Made by a program: the position numbers and the translations under genes. A model generated the notes under the pieces. The model was not told the DNA's origin, did not search any database, and worked only from the letters and a program-made list of their open reading frames with translations. A stretch of 64,000 bases of DNA from Candidatus Saccharimonadota bacterium (GTDB lineage: Bacteria; Patescibacteriota; Saccharimonadia; Saccharimonadales; Saccharimonadaceae). Below, one piece after another: positions 51,390 to 63,985 of this stretch. Position 1 is the stretch's first letter. Every line of letters starts with the position of its first letter. The stretch is from contig JBAXHQ010000001.1 of assembly GCA_037138815.1 (NCBI GenBank), positions 35,407-99,406 on the forward strand, in the 5' to 3' direction.

Positions 51390-53765
51390 TTATGCCTTCT
51401 TGCGTTTGGTTTTGACTGTCCTAGTTTTCTTAACAGTCTTGCGAGTTTTACTTGTGCTCGGTCGTTTTTTTCCAGCTGGAGCGGATGCAACCATCTGTTT
51501 AGCTTGCTCGTGAGTGATACTGGCTGGTTCGGTGTCCTTTGGTATTTTGACATTTTTTGCCCCATCAGTAATATAGGGTCCGAAACGTCCCTTTAATATT
51601 TTGATGCCATCACCGAAATCAGCTATATTTTTCTCGATTTCGGCTTTTAGTTTGGAATTATATAGTTCCAAGGCTTCATCGAGTGTAATAGTGTGTGGAT
51701 CGAATGGTTTAATGCTGACGAATAATTTATCTATCTGGATATAAGGTCCAAAACGCCCAATATTAGCCTTGATAGTTACTCCATCAGGAGTTTGTCCTAC
51801 TGTGCGTGGTAATTTGAACGCATGCAAGGCTTGGTCTAGTGTTACGGTCTCAATTTTACATCCAGCTGGCATTGGAGCGAACTGTAATTTGTCCTCTTTG
51901 TCGTCGCCATTTCCTAGTTGCAGCATTGGCCCAAAACGTCCAAAACGCGCTAGAATTGGCTTGCCACTGGCGGGATCTATACCGATTTCGCGGGCCTTTG
52001 TGACCGTACTGCGGTCAATTCCGCCTGAATTTTCAATTAGTTTATGAAATGGAATATAAAAACCATCCAACATAGTATTGCGGGCCAAGGCGCCAGTTGC
52101 TATCTTGTCGAAGCTAGTTTCAACCTTGGCCGTAAAACCATAATCCACGATCTGTTCAAAATGGTTGGATAGGAAATCACTAACTACTTCACCAGCTGGA
52201 GTTGGTACTAATTTGCCACGATCCGAGCCAGTTTTTTCCTGAATAACTTTGCGTTTTACTAAATTACTACTTAAATTTAGGGTTATGATGTCGCGTGAAG
52301 CGCCTTCATTTTCACCTTTTTCGGCGTAACCACGAACTTGGACGGTGTTAATTATAGTGGCGTAGGTTGACGGACGTCCAATACCTAACTCCTCTAATTT
52401 TTTAACTAAACTACCTTCGCTGTATCTGGCTGGAGGTCTAGCGAATACCTGTTTAGCATCAGCCGATTTAAGGGCTAGAATATCATTGACTGCAACTGAT
52501 GGTAATATCTCGGCATCCTTTTTACTGCCACCGTAGACTTTTAGGAAACCGTCGAATAGGATAACTTCACCTTTGGCTTCAAAATATGGATTTTTTAGGT
52601 CGCCTTTTGATGTACTTTCCTTTGTAATTTTTATAGTAATAACTGTCTTTTCTAATTTAGCTGGTGACATTTGACTAGCTAGTGTTCGACGGCGGATCAG
52701 ATCATATAATTTCTGGTCATATTCATTACTACTGCCACGTTCGCGTGACATATCAGTTGGGCGGATAGCTTCGTGGGCTTCCTGGGCGTTGGCACTCTTG
52801 GTTTTGAATTTTCGCACCTGGCTGTATTGTTCGCCAAAAGCGCTCTTAATGTAATCTGTTGCCATGGCGATTGCCTGACCACTTAGATTGACCGAGTCAG
52901 TACGCATATAGGTTATCTTGCCCTCTTGGTATAGTTTTTGGGCACTAGACATCGTCGCTCTGGCACTAAAGCCTAATCGGCTGTTGGCATCCTGCTGCAG
53001 AGTGCTGGTCGTGAATGGCGCGGCTGGATTGCGAGTTGCTGGGCTGGTTGTTACGTCGGATACGATAAACGTCGAATTAATTAAACCCTCTAGGAAAGTT
53101 TGTGCCTCAGCCTCAGTATTGAATCTATTAGGTAATTCGGCTTTAATTATCTCGCCATTATATGTAAATTCAGCAACTATTTTAAAAGAAAATGATCCAT
53201 TAAAGGCCTCGATCTCGCGTTCGCGCTCTACTAGCAACCTGACTGCTGGTGATTGAACACGGCCAGCTGATTTGCCACCAGGGACTTTACGCCAAACGAC
53301 TGGTGATAATTCAAAACCAACCAATCGGTCTAGGATTTGACGAGCCTGCTGAGCCTGGACTAAATCCATATCAATAGTTCGTGGGTGTTTAATTGCTTCT
53401 TCGATGGCGTTTTTGGTAATTTCGTGAAAAACAATACGTTTGGTAGTTTTTAGATCTAGTTTTAGAACTTCGGCTAAGTGCCAGGCAATAGCCTCCCCTT
53501 CGCGGTCTTCATCGGTTGCTAGCCAGACAGTGTCAGCGGTAGCGACAGCTTTTTTTAGACCGCTGATGATTTTTCGTTTTTCGCTGTCGACTTCATAGGT
53601 TGTTTTGTAGTTATTTTTAGTATCAATAGGTGGAATATTATCTTTGGATTTTTTGATGATGTTGCGGATATGACCAACACTGGACAACACCGTAAAATCA
53701 CCACCGAGGTATTTTTCGATGGTTTTGGCTTTGGCTGGAGATTCGACGATAACTAAGTTCTTCAT
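51390..53765 (-). CDS. topA: DNA topoisomerase I
   Basis: Toprim start MKNLVIVESPAKAKTIEKYLG; the ORF track start at 53816 is upstream of this Met. It has the catalytic-Tyr region ITYMRTDS and C-terminal GRFGPY-type repeats without Cys4 zinc fingers. It ends in a Lys-rich tail. Confidence 0.95.
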   Translation of the reverse strand: MKNLVIVESPAKAKTIEKYLGGDFTVLSSVGHIRNIIKKSKDNIPPIDTKNNYKTTYEVDSEKRKIISGLKKAVATADTVWLATDEDREGEAIAWHLAEVLKLDLKTTKRIVFHEITKNAIEEAIKHPRTIDMDLVQAQQARQILDRLVGFELSPVVWRKVPGGKSAGRVQSPAVRLLVEREREIEAFNGSFSFKIVAEFTYNGEIIKAELPNRFNTEAEAQTFLEGLINSTFIVSDVTTSPATRNPAAPFTTSTLQQDANSRLGFSARATMSSAQKLYQEGKITYMRTDSVNLSGQAIAMATDYIKSAFGEQYSQVRKFKTKSANAQEAHEAIRPTDMSRERGSSNEYDQKLYDLIRRRTLASQMSPAKLEKTVITIKITKESTSKGDLKNPYFEAKGEVILFDGFLKVYGGSKKDAEILPSVAVNDILALKSADAKQVFARPPARYSEGSLVKKLEELGIGRPSTYATIINTVQVRGYAEKGENEGASRDIITLNLSSNLVKRKVIQEKTGSDRGKLVPTPAGEVVSDFLSNHFEQIVDYGFTAKVETSFDKIATGALARNTMLDGFYIPFHKLIENSGGIDRSTVTKAREIGIDPASGKPILARFGRFGPMLQLGNGDDKEDKLQFAPMPAGCKIETVTLDQALHAFKLPRTVGQTPDGVTIKANIGRFGPYIQIDKLFVSIKPFDPHTITLDEALELYNSKLKAEIEKNIADFGDGIKILKGRFGPYITDGAKNVKIPKDTEPASITHEQAKQMVASAPAGKKRPSTSKTRKTVKKTRTVKTKRKKA

Positions 53766-53842
53766 AAAAGTAATACTTGTGCTTGTTGGCTGAGTACAAT
53801 GCCTTATACTACGCAATTTGTTTTATTTTGTAAACTGATTTT

Positions 53843-54700
53843 TTACTTGATAGTCCATTGGTTGCCGCCTAGCGCACGGATTGTACCGGATATTTCTAAC
53901 ATAGTTATAGCCTGCATAAATTCGCTTGTTTCGACTTTTGATAATTTGTATAACTCATCACCATCACGGATGCCCGATTGCATTAACTCGATAATTTTTG
54001 ATTCTGTCGGATTATCACCCAGAGGTAACATAATCTGAGGTTTAAGCAGATCTGGGGCAATAATTTCCAAAACATCTTCAGCACACGTGATTGGGTGCGC
54101 ACCTTGTTTTATTAGATTATTACATCCAGCCGACAGAGGGCTGGTGATGTTGCCGGGTACAACGAAAACCTCACGACCCTGCTCGAGGGCGTGCATGACG
54201 GTTGATAATACGCCACTTCTAGTAGCTGCTTCGGTTACTATGATCGCATCAGATAGACCGCTAATTATACGATTACGTTCTATAAATCTAAAGATACGGG
54301 CTTCGGTCCCTGGTAAGTATTCGCTAACAATAGCGCCGTCATTATTTAGAATATCACTAGCTAAACCTCTATTCGTAGCGGGATAGATAGTGTCAACCCC
54401 GTTGGCTAAAACGGCCAGAGTTATACCACCAGCATCTAGTGCGCCGCGGTGAGCTATGGCATCAACACCCAGCGCTAATCCGCTAACTATAATTACTCCA
54501 TAACGCGCCAAATCGTAGGCTAATTTATATGTGACCTCTCTGCCGTAGTTAGTGGGTTTGCGTGAGCCAACTATTGCTACAGTACAGCGCCTAGTTTCAG
54601 GTAATTTGCCAATAAAATACAATTTTTTTGGACTTTTAGCAATAGTTCCTATGATCTGTAAGTAATTATTGTTAACTGGTGTTATTGCATTGATTTTCAT
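53843..54700 (-). CDS. dprA: DNA processing protein DprA
   Basis: VAIVGSRKPTNYG and SGLALGVDAIAHRGAL mark the Rossmann-like DprA core, with a C-terminal winged-helix-like tail. It lies directly upstream of topA. Confidence 0.88.
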   Translation of the reverse strand: MKINAITPVNNNYLQIIGTIAKSPKKLYFIGKLPETRRCTVAIVGSRKPTNYGREVTYKLAYDLARYGVIIVSGLALGVDAIAHRGALDAGGITLAVLANGVDTIYPATNRGLASDILNNDGAIVSEYLPGTEARIFRFIERNRIISGLSDAIIVTEAATRSGVLSTVMHALEQGREVFVVPGNITSPLSAGCNNLIKQGAHPITCAEDVLEIIAPDLLKPQIMLPLGDNPTESKIIELMQSGIRDGDELYKLSKVETSEFMQAITMLEISGTIRALGGNQWTIK

Positions 54701-54720
54701 ATAGATTATGTCAATAAGTG

Positions 54721-54749
54721 TTGACTTTAAGTCAAATACGTGCTAATAT
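54721..54749 (+). promoter_or_regulatory. Sigma70-type promoter (TTGACT-17-TAATAT) inside a palindromic -35
   Basis: The -35 is part of the palindrome TTGACTTTAAGTCAA, which also presents TTGACT on the - strand towards dprA. Confidence 0.55.
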
Positions 54750-54754
54750 CAGTC

Positions 54755-55007
54755 TCGATTGGTTACATTGCGAGATTAACCAAACGCACCTTATACCCCC
54801 TATTCTAACTTATGTTAGATTACATGCAATGTGTTTTAAGGTAGAATACCCTCCTTTCTTAAGACTATATAGCATTGCATGTATACTAACCCCTTTAACC
54901 GGCGAACATCTGCGATTCAATCGAGATCTGTTACGTTTACCCCTCGGGTGGGTTAAAGGGTAAAATACACCCACAGCGATGCCCACCCTTGCTGTGGGTG
55001 TTTTTTT
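54755..55007 (+). ncRNA. Candidate ~250-nt structured RNA, unclassified (ORF-less cassette)
   Basis: It has its own promoter and an intrinsic terminator (11-bp stem plus T7). Several 8-11-bp helices are readable by eye, and there is no SD-preceded ORF. Confidence 0.45.
54967..55007 (+). terminator. Intrinsic terminator
   Basis: ACACCCACAGC-(13 nt)-GCTGTGGGTGT followed by TTTTTT. Confidence 0.8.
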
Positions 55008-55020
55008 GCCCGCTCTATTA

Positions 55021-55078
55021 TTGACAAATTACGAATATGATGTTACTTTATATTCATTGTATATCCTATACAATGAAT
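55021..55078 (+). promoter_or_regulatory. Promoter (TTGACA-17-TACTTT) plus perfect 12-3-12 palindrome
   Basis: ATTGACAAAT is shared with the next cassette. The palindrome ATTCATTGTATA-TCC-TATACAATGAAT spans 55052-55078, within the transcribed leader. Confidence 0.5.
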
Positions 55079-55104
55079 CTTGAAATTAGAAAAGAGGTAA
55101 TACT

Positions 55105-55371
55105 ATGTGGGCTGTTGTCTCTATTGTAGCTATCCTGTACGTGGTTAGCTTTATCCTTTTTATTCGTTATTTAAGAAATAAGTCTAAAAAGAAATTCAAG
55201 GCATCAAAACTAGACCTGGCTCTTTTGGCGATATCGTTTATCGTGATTATTGGGCTATCGTATTTGGCTGGCATAATACCTACACCGCTAATTACTGGCC
55301 TAGGGGTCTTTATGACTGTGTATTGGTTTTTTATATTCATTTTCGTTTTATTAACGGTTTTGGATAACTAA
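55105..55371 (+). CDS. Small membrane protein (88 aa, about 3 TM)
   Basis: AAGAGG lies 7 nt upstream of the ATG. The protein has hydrophobic helices and a basic loop, RNKSKKKFKAS. Confidence 0.6.
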   Translation: MWAVVSIVAILYVVSFILFIRYLRNKSKKKFKASKLDLALLAISFIVIIGLSYLAGIIPTPLITGLGVFMTVYWFFIFIFVLLTVLDN

Positions 55372-55550: not shown

Positions 55551-55581
55551 TGAATATTTTACATAGGAAGAGGTGTCTAAG

Positions 55582-55926
55582 ATGGGATTTGATATCATAA
55601 ATATCATCGTTCTATCAGCATTAGCTCTGGTATTCTTTATTTTTTATTCCTTGAAACTTTCCGAGAGAAAGTTTGGTGCCAGTTTTTTCTACTTAGGTAT
55701 GGTGGTCGTGTTATTCACTCAAGCCGCCAGGGTTGTTTTTACGAGAGTCGTAATAATAACCGCAACTACGCCTAACATAAAAAGCCTTGCGCCACTGGAT
55801 ACGATCTTTGGATGGTTAATGGCGTTAGGAGTTGTCCTGATTGTCATAGGCGGTCTAAAATCATTTCGTAGAAAGACTACCAAGCCAGCTCATATTGCGT
55901 CTATTAATAAACGCGACGTAAGCTAA
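55582..55926 (+). CDS. Small membrane protein (114 aa, about 3 TM)
   Basis: GGAAGAGG lies 8 nt upstream of ATG 55582; the ORF track opens at GTG 55573. The loop SERKFGAS resembles KKKFKAS of the neighbouring small protein. Confidence 0.6.
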   Translation: MGFDIINIIVLSALALVFFIFYSLKLSERKFGASFFYLGMVVVLFTQAARVVFTRVVIITATTPNIKSLAPLDTIFGWLMALGVVLIVIGGLKSFRRKTTKPAHIASINKRDVS

Positions 55927-56589: not shown

Positions 56590-57971
56590 TATTCCTCTTT
56601 TGATTTTTTAGCTAGCTTGGTTTGTTCGAGCTGCTCTTTTTCGCGGTTGGCTTTGATCTGTTTTTCGTCACGGAAACTAAATTTTATCGGGGTCCCCGTA
56701 TAATTATAGGTTTCGCGAAGTTGACGTTCTAAATAGCGTTTGTAACTCCAGTGTAGGAATTTGAGGTTAGACCCGTGAATAACAAACCATGGTGGTGTGG
56801 TATCGGTCTGGACTATGTAACGAAGTTTAGGGTGAGTGTTTTTTAGACCAGCTGGTGGGTGGGCCTGAACGCTCTTTTGGAGCATGTCGTTTAAGATTCT
56901 GGTTCTGGTTTTTTGTTCTCGCCTGGCTTCGATATCTAGGGCTAGATCGAATAGTTTAGTAACATTCTGACCAGTTACGCTACTAGTAAAAATCAGTGGT
57001 GCCCAAGGCGTGAAATCAAAAGTTCGTGAAATAGTTGGGGCTAATTCGTCGCGGGTATAGGCATCTTTGCCTTCGACACTATCCCATTTAGTAACAACGA
57101 TTGCCATGCCTTTGCCGGCTTCGTCGATAATACCAGCAATTCGTTGGTCTAATTGAGTATTCAGTTCATTAGCATCCATTAGTAAGAAACAGATGTCTGA
57201 CTCTTCTATGGCTTGTAGGGTGCGCAATACGCTGAACTTCTCGATACCAACCTCTTGTTTACCGGGTTTTCGCATGCCAGCAGTGTCGAGTAATTCAATG
57301 TCACGGGCACCATAGCGAACAGATACGCGGTTAACGTCGCGGGTTGTACCGGCGATATTGGCGACAATCGCCTGTTGTTTACCAGCTAGCGTGTTAAATA
57401 GATAGCTTTTACCAACATTTGGTCGTCCAATTAGGGCGATTCGCAAAATGTCATCTGGGATATATTCACTTTTGGCAGGGATTAGACCAACAATAGCATC
57501 CAAAGTATCGGTAATACCATAATTATGTTCGGCACTGGTACGGATGATTTCTTTGATACCCAGGCGCTTAAATTCGTCATCTGGCAGGCTGTCTTTTAGA
57601 TCGGCTTTGTTGGTTAGTAATATAACTGGTTTTTTACTTCGCAGAGCTTTTTTAGCGACGAATTTATCTTGGTCGCTGGAATATTGGCTGCTATCGACGA
57701 CTACTAGGATAATATCGGCGGCTTCGGCTGCCTCTGTTATTTGTTCTTGGATTGAGGCCTCAAAGTCATCAGATGGATCCTTTAGACCAGCGGTGTCTAC
57801 TAACCAAAAACTATGTTTTTTATACTCGACACGCCCTAGGACGTTATCACGGGTTGTTCCAGCCTCGCGGGCGACAATCGCCTGCTGCGAGCGTACCATA
57901 CGGTTAAAAAGCGAACTTTTGCCGACGTTCGCTTGACCAATAATTGCAACTGTAGGAAGTTTTGAAGCCAT
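56589..57971 (-). CDS. der: Ribosome-associated GTPase Der (EngA)
   Basis: Two tandem G domains (GQANVGKSSLFN, GRPNVGKSYLFN) plus a KH-like C-terminal domain. 1-nt overlap with pth. Confidence 0.95.
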   Translation of the reverse strand: MASKLPTVAIIGQANVGKSSLFNRMVRSQQAIVAREAGTTRDNVLGRVEYKKHSFWLVDTAGLKDPSDDFEASIQEQITEAAEAADIILVVVDSSQYSSDQDKFVAKKALRSKKPVILLTNKADLKDSLPDDEFKRLGIKEIIRTSAEHNYGITDTLDAIVGLIPAKSEYIPDDILRIALIGRPNVGKSYLFNTLAGKQQAIVANIAGTTRDVNRVSVRYGARDIELLDTAGMRKPGKQEVGIEKFSVLRTLQAIEESDICFLLMDANELNTQLDQRIAGIIDEAGKGMAIVVTKWDSVEGKDAYTRDELAPTISRTFDFTPWAPLIFTSSVTGQNVTKLFDLALDIEARREQKTRTRILNDMLQKSVQAHPPAGLKNTHPKLRYIVQTDTTPPWFVIHGSNLKFLHWSYKRYLERQLRETYNYTGTPIKFSFRDEKQIKANREKEQLEQTKLAKKSKEE

Positions 57972-63708: not shown

Positions 63709-63783
63709 TGGTGATCGTACCGGGAATTGAACCCGGATTGCCAGGATGAGAACCTGGTGTCCTAACCTTTAGACGATACGACC
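63709..63783 (-). tRNA. tRNA-Glu (anticodon CUC), CCA encoded
   Basis: Hand-folded cloverleaf: acceptor GGTCGTA/TACGATC, D-arm GTCT-AAAGGTTA-GGAC, anticodon arm CCAGG-TTCTCAT-CCTGG, variable CAAT, T-arm CCGGG-TTCAATT-CCCGG, discriminator A, then CCA. Confidence 0.9.
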
Positions 63784-63926
63784 ATAGGTATATTGTACTT
63801 TGTTTGGGGTTTAATTCCTTGTAGGGAATTGGTCACCTGTCATTTTCTTTGAAAATGCAGTCGACCCCGCCTCAGTCGGTGACGTTCGTCATCCGGCTTC
63901 CGGCCTTGCGACCCGCCGACGTGGCG
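63784..63926 (-). ncRNA. GC-rich, helix-dense spacer RNA between the two tRNA-Glu units (unclassified)
   Basis: It is clearly more GC-rich than neighbouring intergenic DNA. At least five hairpins and one enclosing helix are readable by eye (see findings). Confidence 0.35.
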
Positions 63927-63985
63927 GGTCTCACCCGGATTGCCAGGATGAGAACCTGGTGTCCTAACCTTTAGACGATGAGACC
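63927..63985 (-). pseudogene. tRNA-Glu(CUC)-like unit lacking T-loop and 3' T-stem
   Basis: A 47-nt perfect match to the intact tRNA (63933-63979 = 63731-63777). It has its own fully paired acceptor stem GGTCTCA/TGAGACC, exactly 12 nt of the T-arm are missing, and there is no CCA. Confidence 0.6.

Follow-up and report, generated by a model that had tools for sequence, protein, structure and literature searches.

What is encoded in the gap upstream of the competence gene dprA in the Saccharibacteria? The question arises from a stretch of 64,000 nucleotides (nt) of a Candidatus Saccharimonadota bacterium (assembly GCA_037138815.1, contig JBAXHQ010000001.1, positions 35,407 to 99,406; hereafter the window). 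In this gap, an initial annotation had placed an orphan structured RNA of approximately 250 nt, with a promoter and terminator of its own, divergent from dprA. The core of that proposal is borne out, as the element is conserved in every Saccharibacteria relative examined. Positions 54756-55005 (+) of the window are a stand-alone gene for a predicted, highly structured non-coding RNA of ~250 nt, with its own sigma-70-type promoter and intrinsic terminator. As read from sequence, the RNA is the window's representative of a Saccharibacteria-wide family without earlier description, whose members usually stand back-to-back with dprA. The whole unit, from promoter to terminator, occupies 54721-55007 (+), between dprA and a small open reading frame (ORF).

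Conservation and Distribution

Conservation was followed in a dprA-anchored sample of species-representative genomes, comprising 35 Saccharibacteria loci and 45 loci from other phyla, by a single-sequence nhmmer search and then a profile hidden Markov model. The sample places the window in a Candidatus Saccharimonas genome (Saccharibacteria, also called TM7). The closest locus has a DprA that is 94% identical to that of the window, and identity falls to ~45-50% in the most distant. Each of the 35 Saccharibacteria loci has the element, placed upstream of dprA and divergently oriented, with E-values down to 1e-87; neither search detects it in the 45 loci of other phyla. The window's copy, the only one that the window contains, scores 121.5 bits with a covariance model (R1) built on the 3′ domain. 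The same model recovers Saccharibacteria copies with architectures outside the seed alignment and finds nothing above 12 bits in the 45 non-Saccharibacteria loci.

A pattern search of metagenome contigs, independent of dprA, returned 120 loci, most of which (about 90) carry the element. The extracted full-length copies number 95, range from 239 to 454 nt and reduce to 67 representatives below 90% identity. Among 60 testable, independently sampled copies, the divergent neighbour is dprA in 52, and pth lies nearby in four of the remaining eight. A phage or mobile origin was rejected, since the pattern, when run on viral contigs, matched only terminator-like sequences by chance and no true copy.

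Coding Capacity and Downstream Genes

The locus holds an 81-amino acid (aa) GTG ORF (54718-54963) and a 58-aa ORF on the minus strand, and the existence of both in the window is what can be said for a small protein as the product. The 81-aa frame is open only in the window and in its nearest, 94%-identical relative (L001) and is broken elsewhere, so the initial annotation was correct in dismissing it. In the relatives, the longest open frames switch frame and strand, indels are not multiples of three, and substitutions follow base pairing. There is also no Pfam match and no ribosome-binding site. With no reading frame conserved among relatives, a protein-coding small ORF was rejected, and the chance that the locus encodes one is negligible.

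The gene that follows the terminator is equally variable. Some loci have an unrelated small membrane ORF at this place, others a tRNA, and others have no gene before the convergent pth. In locus L013 the 3′ end of pth lies 19 nt past the terminator; L004, L005 and L009 are similar, and no same-strand gene follows in these four. The RNA was thus rejected as a leader of the 88-aa membrane ORF downstream in the window, which is not conserved and often absent. More generally, no constant downstream gene or gene class was found of the kind that a cis-regulatory leader (riboswitch or T-box) would serve. The initial annotation had named lack of conservation, a conserved coding frame and membership in a known Rfam family as outcomes that would speak against it; all three were examined, and none was found.

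Promoter, Transcript Limits and Terminator

The limits of the predicted transcript and the arrangement with respect to dprA are set by the following features.

53843-54700 (-): dprA, the divergent neighbour (Pfam DNA_processg_A, E = 2e-71)
54721-54749 (+): near-consensus promoter, with -35 TTGACT (54721-54726), a 17-nt spacer and a TG-extended -10, TGcTAATAT (54741-54749)
54721-54735 (unstranded): inverted repeat TTGAC-N5-GTCAA, overlapping the -35 and the spacer
54967-55007 (+): intrinsic terminator, with a 12-base pair (bp) G+C-rich stem (54967-54978/54990-55001), an 11-nt loop AUGCCCACCCU (54979-54989) and a U tract (55001-55007, T7)

The promoter TTGACT-17-TAATAT had been recognised in the initial annotation, and it proves in addition to be TG-extended. 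The predicted transcription start lies at ~54756 ± 2. Taken alone, a promoter scan of the window is not significant (6 sites against 3.8 expected). The pattern TTGACw-17-TGnTAnnAT is equally placed in all relatives listed without a pattern filter, and then in the 95 full-length copies.

The start codon of dprA is 20 nt from the -35 of the RNA, and the two promoters physically overlap. As dprA also has a TG-extended -10 of its own (TGACATAAT), RNA polymerase cannot occupy both promoters simultaneously. The palindrome at the -35 is real and enriched: 36 of 73 distinct promoters have it, where spacer composition predicts ~0.1%, and some lineages lack it. The suggestion that it also offers a -35 towards dprA fared less well, since its arm stands 19 nt from the dprA -10, which is a poor spacing. 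The repeat may be an operator, or an element common to the back-to-back promoters of the RNA and dprA.

At the other end, the strong hairpin and T7 tract described at the outset were confirmed, with a stem of 12 bp. The terminator loop is closed by an invariant G-U pair and has the core GCCCACCC at 54981-54988. No copy of the dprA-anchored sample lacks this core, although the core played no part in selecting that sample. The stem covaries at five of seven tested pairs and the loop is invariant. Read on the minus strand, window 54962-55024 consists of the terminator hairpin followed by UAUUUUAC, and the hairpin may also serve as a weak bidirectional terminator against transcription from the pth side.

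Secondary Structure and Covariation

The plus strand folds with a minimum free energy of -86.9 kcal/mol (z = -7.7), and none of 200 dinucleotide shuffles folds as well. The fold of the minus strand is weaker (z = -3.9). The strand is fixed as plus by conserved G-U pairs, namely a U-G in 16 of 49 sequences at one pair of helix P4 and the invariant G-U closing the terminator loop. The predicted helices P1, P3, P4 and P5 and the terminator stem are strongly backed by covariation. The elements of the predicted fold upstream of the terminator are listed below.

54759-54783 (+): P1, 5′-terminal hairpin UUGGUUA.AUU-GCGA-GAU.UAACCAA, with a GNRA tetraloop in the window; paired by alifold
54784-54805 (+): J1/2, unpaired C-rich block AACGCACCUUAUACCCCCUAUU, ~19 nt of which are invariant in the window's subtype
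54806-54819 (+): P2, plausible hairpin CUAAC-UUAU-GUUAG, with an alternative partner for GUUAG downstream
54821-54883 (+): P3, long hairpin with a lower stem (54821-54832/54872-54883), an upper stem (~54833-54841/54857-54865) and an apical loop containing invariant UACCCUCC (54847-54854)
54884-54890 (+): J3/4, linker with invariant UACUAAY, the alternative partner of GUUAG
54891-54960 (+): 3′ domain, a three-way junction of P4 (54891-54900/54951-54960), P5 (54901-54937) and P6 (54938-54950), containing invariant GGGUGGGUUAAAGGG

At the position of P1, a hairpin of at least 6 bp is found in 64 of the 67 representatives. Its stem sequence differs widely among them, and 17 of the 67 have GNRA loops. 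This helix replaces the 5′ fold originally proposed, in which TCTCG/CGAGA formed a hairpin whose loop entered a pseudoknot. That hairpin is not conserved. TCTCG falls at the predicted transcription start or before it, and the two strands of P1 (TTGGTTA/TAACCAA) had been misread as the loop and its pseudoknot partner. The mutually exclusive pairing of GTCTCGATTG with CAATCGAGAT is likewise confined to the window's lineage; the 5′ leader varies, and UCGAGA is conserved as part of P5.

Two further helices of the initial annotation are real and covary. The 11-bp helix 54821-54831/54873-54883 is the lower stem of P3 and shows compensatory changes at 10 of 11 pairs. In P3, 96.3% of cells are paired, against 86.7% in shuffled and 17-46% in slid controls, and none of 500 shuffles reaches the observed value. 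The 10-bp helix 54891-54900/54951-54960 is P4, which closes the junction with P5 and P6 and has compensatory changes at 7 of 10 pairs. The base of P5 and P6 also covary. Taking the 3′ domain together, the paired fraction of cells is 88.6% (78.7% shuffled, 34-57% slid), with 153 double-change cells against 48.5 ± 8.2 in shuffles (0/500). P5 occurs in two subtypes, the window type AUCUGCGA...UCGAGAU and a second type GACCYCC...GAGGUGGGUC. The P4 of L192 (550-855, +) has one A more in its 5′ strand and one T more in its 3′ strand, a compensatory pair insertion that makes the helix 1 bp longer.

The status of P2 is less clear. The hairpin CTAAC-TTAT-GTTAG of the initial annotation is plausible, and insertions in its loop form hairpin extensions in six loci (L010, L011, L017, L024, L035 and L218), which favours it. 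GUUAG (54815-54819) can instead pair with the downstream ACUAAC (54885-54890), extending P3, and this is the partner that alifold prefers. Covariation cannot decide between the two, because all three strands are invariant.

In the consensus fold the two ends of the RNA are not joined by a helix. Large insertions occur at the periphery of the fold: L015 (3640-3805, -) carries one of ~170 nt exactly at the P3 tip, and in L166, L169, L224 and similar loci the P4 junction is enlarged by additional helices of 60-90 nt. The predicted scaffold is tolerant of large peripheral expansions, as are those of RNase P and raiA.

Invariant C-Rich Motifs and Internal Complementarity

In the consensus fold, the invariant positions cluster in the unpaired C-rich segments ACCUUAUACCCCC, UACCCUCC and GCCCACCCUU. 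The invariant blocks are GCACCUUAUACCCCCUAUU in J1/2, UACCCUCC at the apex of P3, AUACUAAY-CCCUUUAACC, GGGUGGGUUAAAGGGUAAAA and the terminator loop GA(U/A)GCCCACCCUU. Even the most divergent subtypes preserve P4, the base of P5, a P3 loop of the CCUCC type and the terminator loop with GCCCACCC. J1/2 drifts lineage by lineage, and the distant subtypes retain in it only CGCACCU/ACCUCC-like sequence. The apical loop of P3 had been noted for a decamer, CCUCCUUUCU, identical to the anti-Shine–Dalgarno (anti-SD) tail of 16S rRNA. Of this decamer only (UA)CCCUCC, and more narrowly CCUCC, is conserved; the full identity to the 16S tail is not kept, as relatives have CCUCCAUCC or CCUCCACUU.

The CCCACCC of the terminator loop is exactly complementary to an invariant internal GGGUGGG. 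In L035 both sides are one base longer, reading GGGGUGGG and CCCACCCC. No covariation test of this pairing is possible, because both sides are invariant. We infer that the pairing and the terminator stem are sterically unable to coexist.

Known Families and the raiA/ModT Comparison

The window was scanned against the 4227 families of Rfam 15 at gathering thresholds, and more permissive scans covered 54600-55150 (E <= 10) and seven divergent homologues (E <= 5). The gathering-threshold scan returned nothing except tRNAs ~9 kb away. At the locus, the only match at E <= 10 is that of the terminator hairpin to RF02278, at 22.6 bits against a gathering score of 50, and the seven homologues gave none at E <= 5. 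Membership in a known RNA family was therefore rejected, and no riboswitch or T-box family was among the matches in either permissive scan, which also removes a known aptamer or T-box as a candidate.

The RNA is not described in the searchable literature. The TM7x transcriptome paper reports that no small RNA has been validated, and the Prokaryotic Genome Annotation Pipeline (PGAP) lists only 2 non-coding RNAs (ncRNAs) in a complete Nanosynbacter genome. The Weinberg 2017 survey gives only the lysM-TM7 motif for the phylum, and a survey of RNAs in the human microbiome does not mention the phylum. The RNA is thus a new predicted family among the orphan, stand-alone, structured bacterial ncRNAs, with raiA/ModT as its nearest analogue and not its homologue.

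raiA/ModT (RF03072), found in Bacillota and Actinomycetota, is a single-copy, independently transcribed, trans-acting RNA of ~200 nt with an intricate fold and many invariant nucleotides. The same description is predicted to fit the present RNA. Both are conserved across a phylum or class, vary in their peripheral domains and often end in an intrinsic terminator. The usual neighbour of each is a late competence gene; for raiA this is comFC in 74% of cases (PMC10861870), and for the present RNA it is dprA in 52 of 60. What is shared is by analogy only: a stand-alone, single-copy gene that adjoins a competence gene and has no obligatory downstream gene. No homology is detectable, as RF03072 gives no match in either permissive scan, and the phyla differ. 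The RF03072 model has six to eight conserved helices, two pseudoknots and ~51 invariant nucleotides, whereas the present RNA has no covariation-supported pseudoknot. The invariant terminator loop and the C-rich motifs belong to the present RNA and not to raiA/ModT. The molecular mechanism of raiA/ModT is itself unknown (PMC11706538).

Proposed Role and Alternative Explanations

C-rich loops and linkers are used by RsaE/RoxS, S. aureus RNAIII and the csRNAs of S. pneumoniae to pair with G-rich ribosome-binding sites, and the csRNAs also act on competence. As in these RNAs, conserved C-rich or CCUCC motifs lie in the hairpin loops and unpaired linkers of the present RNA, including the terminator hairpin. 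The reading preferred here, tentatively and with a probability judged short of even, is that the RNA acts in trans as a regulatory RNA whose C-rich motifs pair with G-rich sequences. The rigid covarying helices would serve as a scaffold that displays three or four invariant, anti-SD-like single-stranded motifs. These would most plausibly pair, as in the RNAs above, with the ribosome-binding sites of particular mRNAs, and GGUGGG, an internal motif that is just as invariant, may be a competitor for the terminator loop. The conserved promoter overlap would couple expression of the RNA to that of dprA, through competition for RNA polymerase or a shared operator. This overlap and the palindrome together suggest that transcription of the RNA is linked to competence, a natural trait of Saccharibacteria. 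The CCUCC apical loop and GCCCACCC are kept while J1/2 changes by lineage, as is expected of seed regions that co-evolve with their targets.

Several observations weigh against this reading. In ~1.17 Mb of locus and window sequence, a sample that is small and partly biased by the search pattern, the complements of three C-rich motifs are not enriched before start codons and point to no recurrent gene. An apparent excess of GGGTGGGC in this search was an artefact of the metagenome search pattern. Many genes are apparently leaderless, which would limit the scope of Shine–Dalgarno (SD) targeting. The pairing of the terminator loop with GGUGGG, being invariant on both sides, shows no covariation. 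The class-wide conservation of nearly the whole molecule, the multi-helix junction and the GNRA loops look atypical for simple base-pairing small RNAs (sRNAs) and more like ribonucleoprotein (RNP) or tertiary-structured RNAs such as raiA/ModT. RsaE/RoxS and the csRNAs, though not RNAIII, are 90-150 nt long with simple hairpins and genus- or order-level conservation, whereas the present RNA is 240-450 nt, multi-domain with a junction, and class-wide. RsaE/RoxS has no sequence or structure homology to it (no Rfam match).

The breadth of conservation, the junction and the GNRA loops favour a protein-binding role nearly as well as base pairing is favoured. The RNA might be a component or scaffold of an RNP, or might sequester a protein, acting as a global regulator like raiA/ModT, 6S, CsrB or OLE; this is possible, if on the doubtful side. 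The (U/A)ACCC repeats and the invariant terminator loop would then be protein sites, for example for a C-rich-binding KH-type protein, and not pairing seeds. Five (U/A/C)ACCC motifs are present, in J1/2, the P3 loop, the 5′ strands of P4 and P6, and the terminator loop. Conservation over most of the molecule across the class, in genomes of roughly 1 Mb, the complex junction with its GNRA loops and the failure to find an mRNA target in the sequence searched all agree with such a role. raiA/ModT, the closest analogue, has been argued on like grounds not to act by simple pairing. A partner protein is not identifiable, however, there is no conserved neighbour besides dprA and pth, and the divergence of J1/2 from lineage to lineage is larger than would be expected of a fixed protein site. 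A related and similarly doubtful proposal is that of a complex-folded, Saccharibacteria-specific RNA class which is not an ordinary base-pairing sRNA. It would have an RNP- or ribozyme-like part in DNA uptake and recombination or in translation in these ultra-small epibiotic cells, as a functional counterpart of raiA/ModT of independent origin, next to another competence gene.

The internal complementarity raises the prospect of a sensor, in which an aptamer-like P4/P5/P6 domain sequesters GGGUGGG when folded. Unfolded, GGGUGGG would pair with the CCCACCC of the terminator loop and cause read-through, into variable downstream ORFs or antisense to pth. As in terminator-controlling riboswitches and T-box leaders, a junction domain lies directly 5′ of the terminator, a GGGUGG-type complement to the terminator hairpin exists, and the CUAAC/GUUAG/CUAAC trio gives GUUAG two invariant alternative partners. 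The exactness of the complementarity between two invariant segments, and its one-base extension on both sides in L035, fit the same idea. Unlike such leaders, the RNA has a 5′ domain of its own, ~140 nt and conserved, which a sensor leaves unexplained, and the complementarity is to the terminator loop rather than to its stem. What lies downstream varies, often with no gene on that strand, and Rfam holds no matching riboswitch. The alternative helix shows no covariation, and the second subtype has GGUG[C/U/A]G as its junction-proximal motif, with its only GGUGGG inside P5. A sensor is accordingly rated improbable. Still less credence is given to catalysis by a new ribozyme class, or to some other sophisticated tertiary fold with a biochemical function. 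Many invariant unpaired nucleotides framed by covarying helices, GNRA tetraloops, a tight three-way junction and variable-length insertions at helix tips would suit it, but no long-range pseudoknot or closing helix has covariation support, no known ribozyme matches, and the smallest members, at 240 nt, are of modest size. Least probable among these structured RNAs, and largely refuted, is a highly divergent housekeeping RNA that the Rfam models miss in the Candidate Phyla Radiation (CPR). The 2 ncRNAs listed by PGAP do leave room for standard RNAs going undetected in the phylum, and the strong promoter and class-wide conservation would fit. The likeness to 6S RNA extends to a stand-alone, housekeeping-type regulatory gene, abundance being only predicted for the present RNA, and ends at the fold, which lacks the rod, central bubble and paired termini of 6S (RF00013, no match). 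There is no closing helix of the 5′ and 3′ ends, no P4 GGAAAGUCC/ACAGAA of RNase P, no GGAA-capped helix 8 of the signal recognition particle (SRP) RNA, and no tRNA-like end or tag ORF of transfer-messenger RNA (tmRNA). The initial annotation could match the RNA to none of SRP, 6S, RNase P, tmRNA or a riboswitch. Rfam agrees, with no such match at the locus even at E <= 10, as does ARAGORN, which finds only a tRNA-Glu in the window.

Significance of the Family

Saccharibacteria are tiny parasitic or epibiotic cells with genomes of ~0.7-1 Mb that are ~94% coding. The retention of a single-copy structured RNA with a near-consensus promoter in every sampled lineage of such small, dense genomes points to strong selection. 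With this family, a CPR phylum would have its first described lineage-specific RNA, whether regulatory or structural; the family also fills a gap in the Rfam and PGAP annotation of CPR genomes. The constant placement of the gene against the dprA promoter recalls the still unexplained linkage of raiA with comFC in Gram-positives. Large structured RNAs may thus have become associated with the competence machinery repeatedly. Methods to transform and mutagenise Saccharibacteria now exist (PMC10187176), which opens the RNA gene to direct deletion and loop mutation.

Other Features of the Window

The DprA of the window is a short form of 285 aa, in which the Pfam DNA_processg_A match starts at residue 2. 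It is followed in the window by a TopA ORF at 51390-53816 (-), 808 aa from a TTG start, with three C-terminal Toprim_C_rpt repeats. On the other side, the gap between the terminator and pth is occupied by small hydrophobic ORFs of 88-160 aa, which are unrelated, evolve fast and have no Pfam match; in the window they lie at 55105-55371 (+) and 55573-55926 (+). In the same gap of L001-L020 the small ORFs differ from genome to genome and are sometimes missing.

Many genes of the window have a TATAAT-like -10, often TG-extended, ~5-12 nt before the ATG and no SD sequence. Examples are the ORFs starting at 1445, 6422, 19343, 25677, 28734, 30545, 34746, 36275 and 44884 and, on the minus strand, at 57971, 59561 and 54700 (dprA). 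Leaderless mRNAs thus appear common in this Saccharimonas genome. The SD-led genes of the window use AGGAG/GGAGG/AAGGGG.

An intact tRNA-Glu(CTC) gene lies at 63709-63783 (-), and a second, truncated tRNA-Glu-like copy at 63926-63985 (-). In the latter, the acceptor, D and anticodon arms are near-identical to those of the intact gene and the T arm is deleted; it scores 33.9 bits with the Rfam tRNA model and is not called by ARAGORN. Decay of a duplicated gene, or an integration event that left a scar, could account for this copy.

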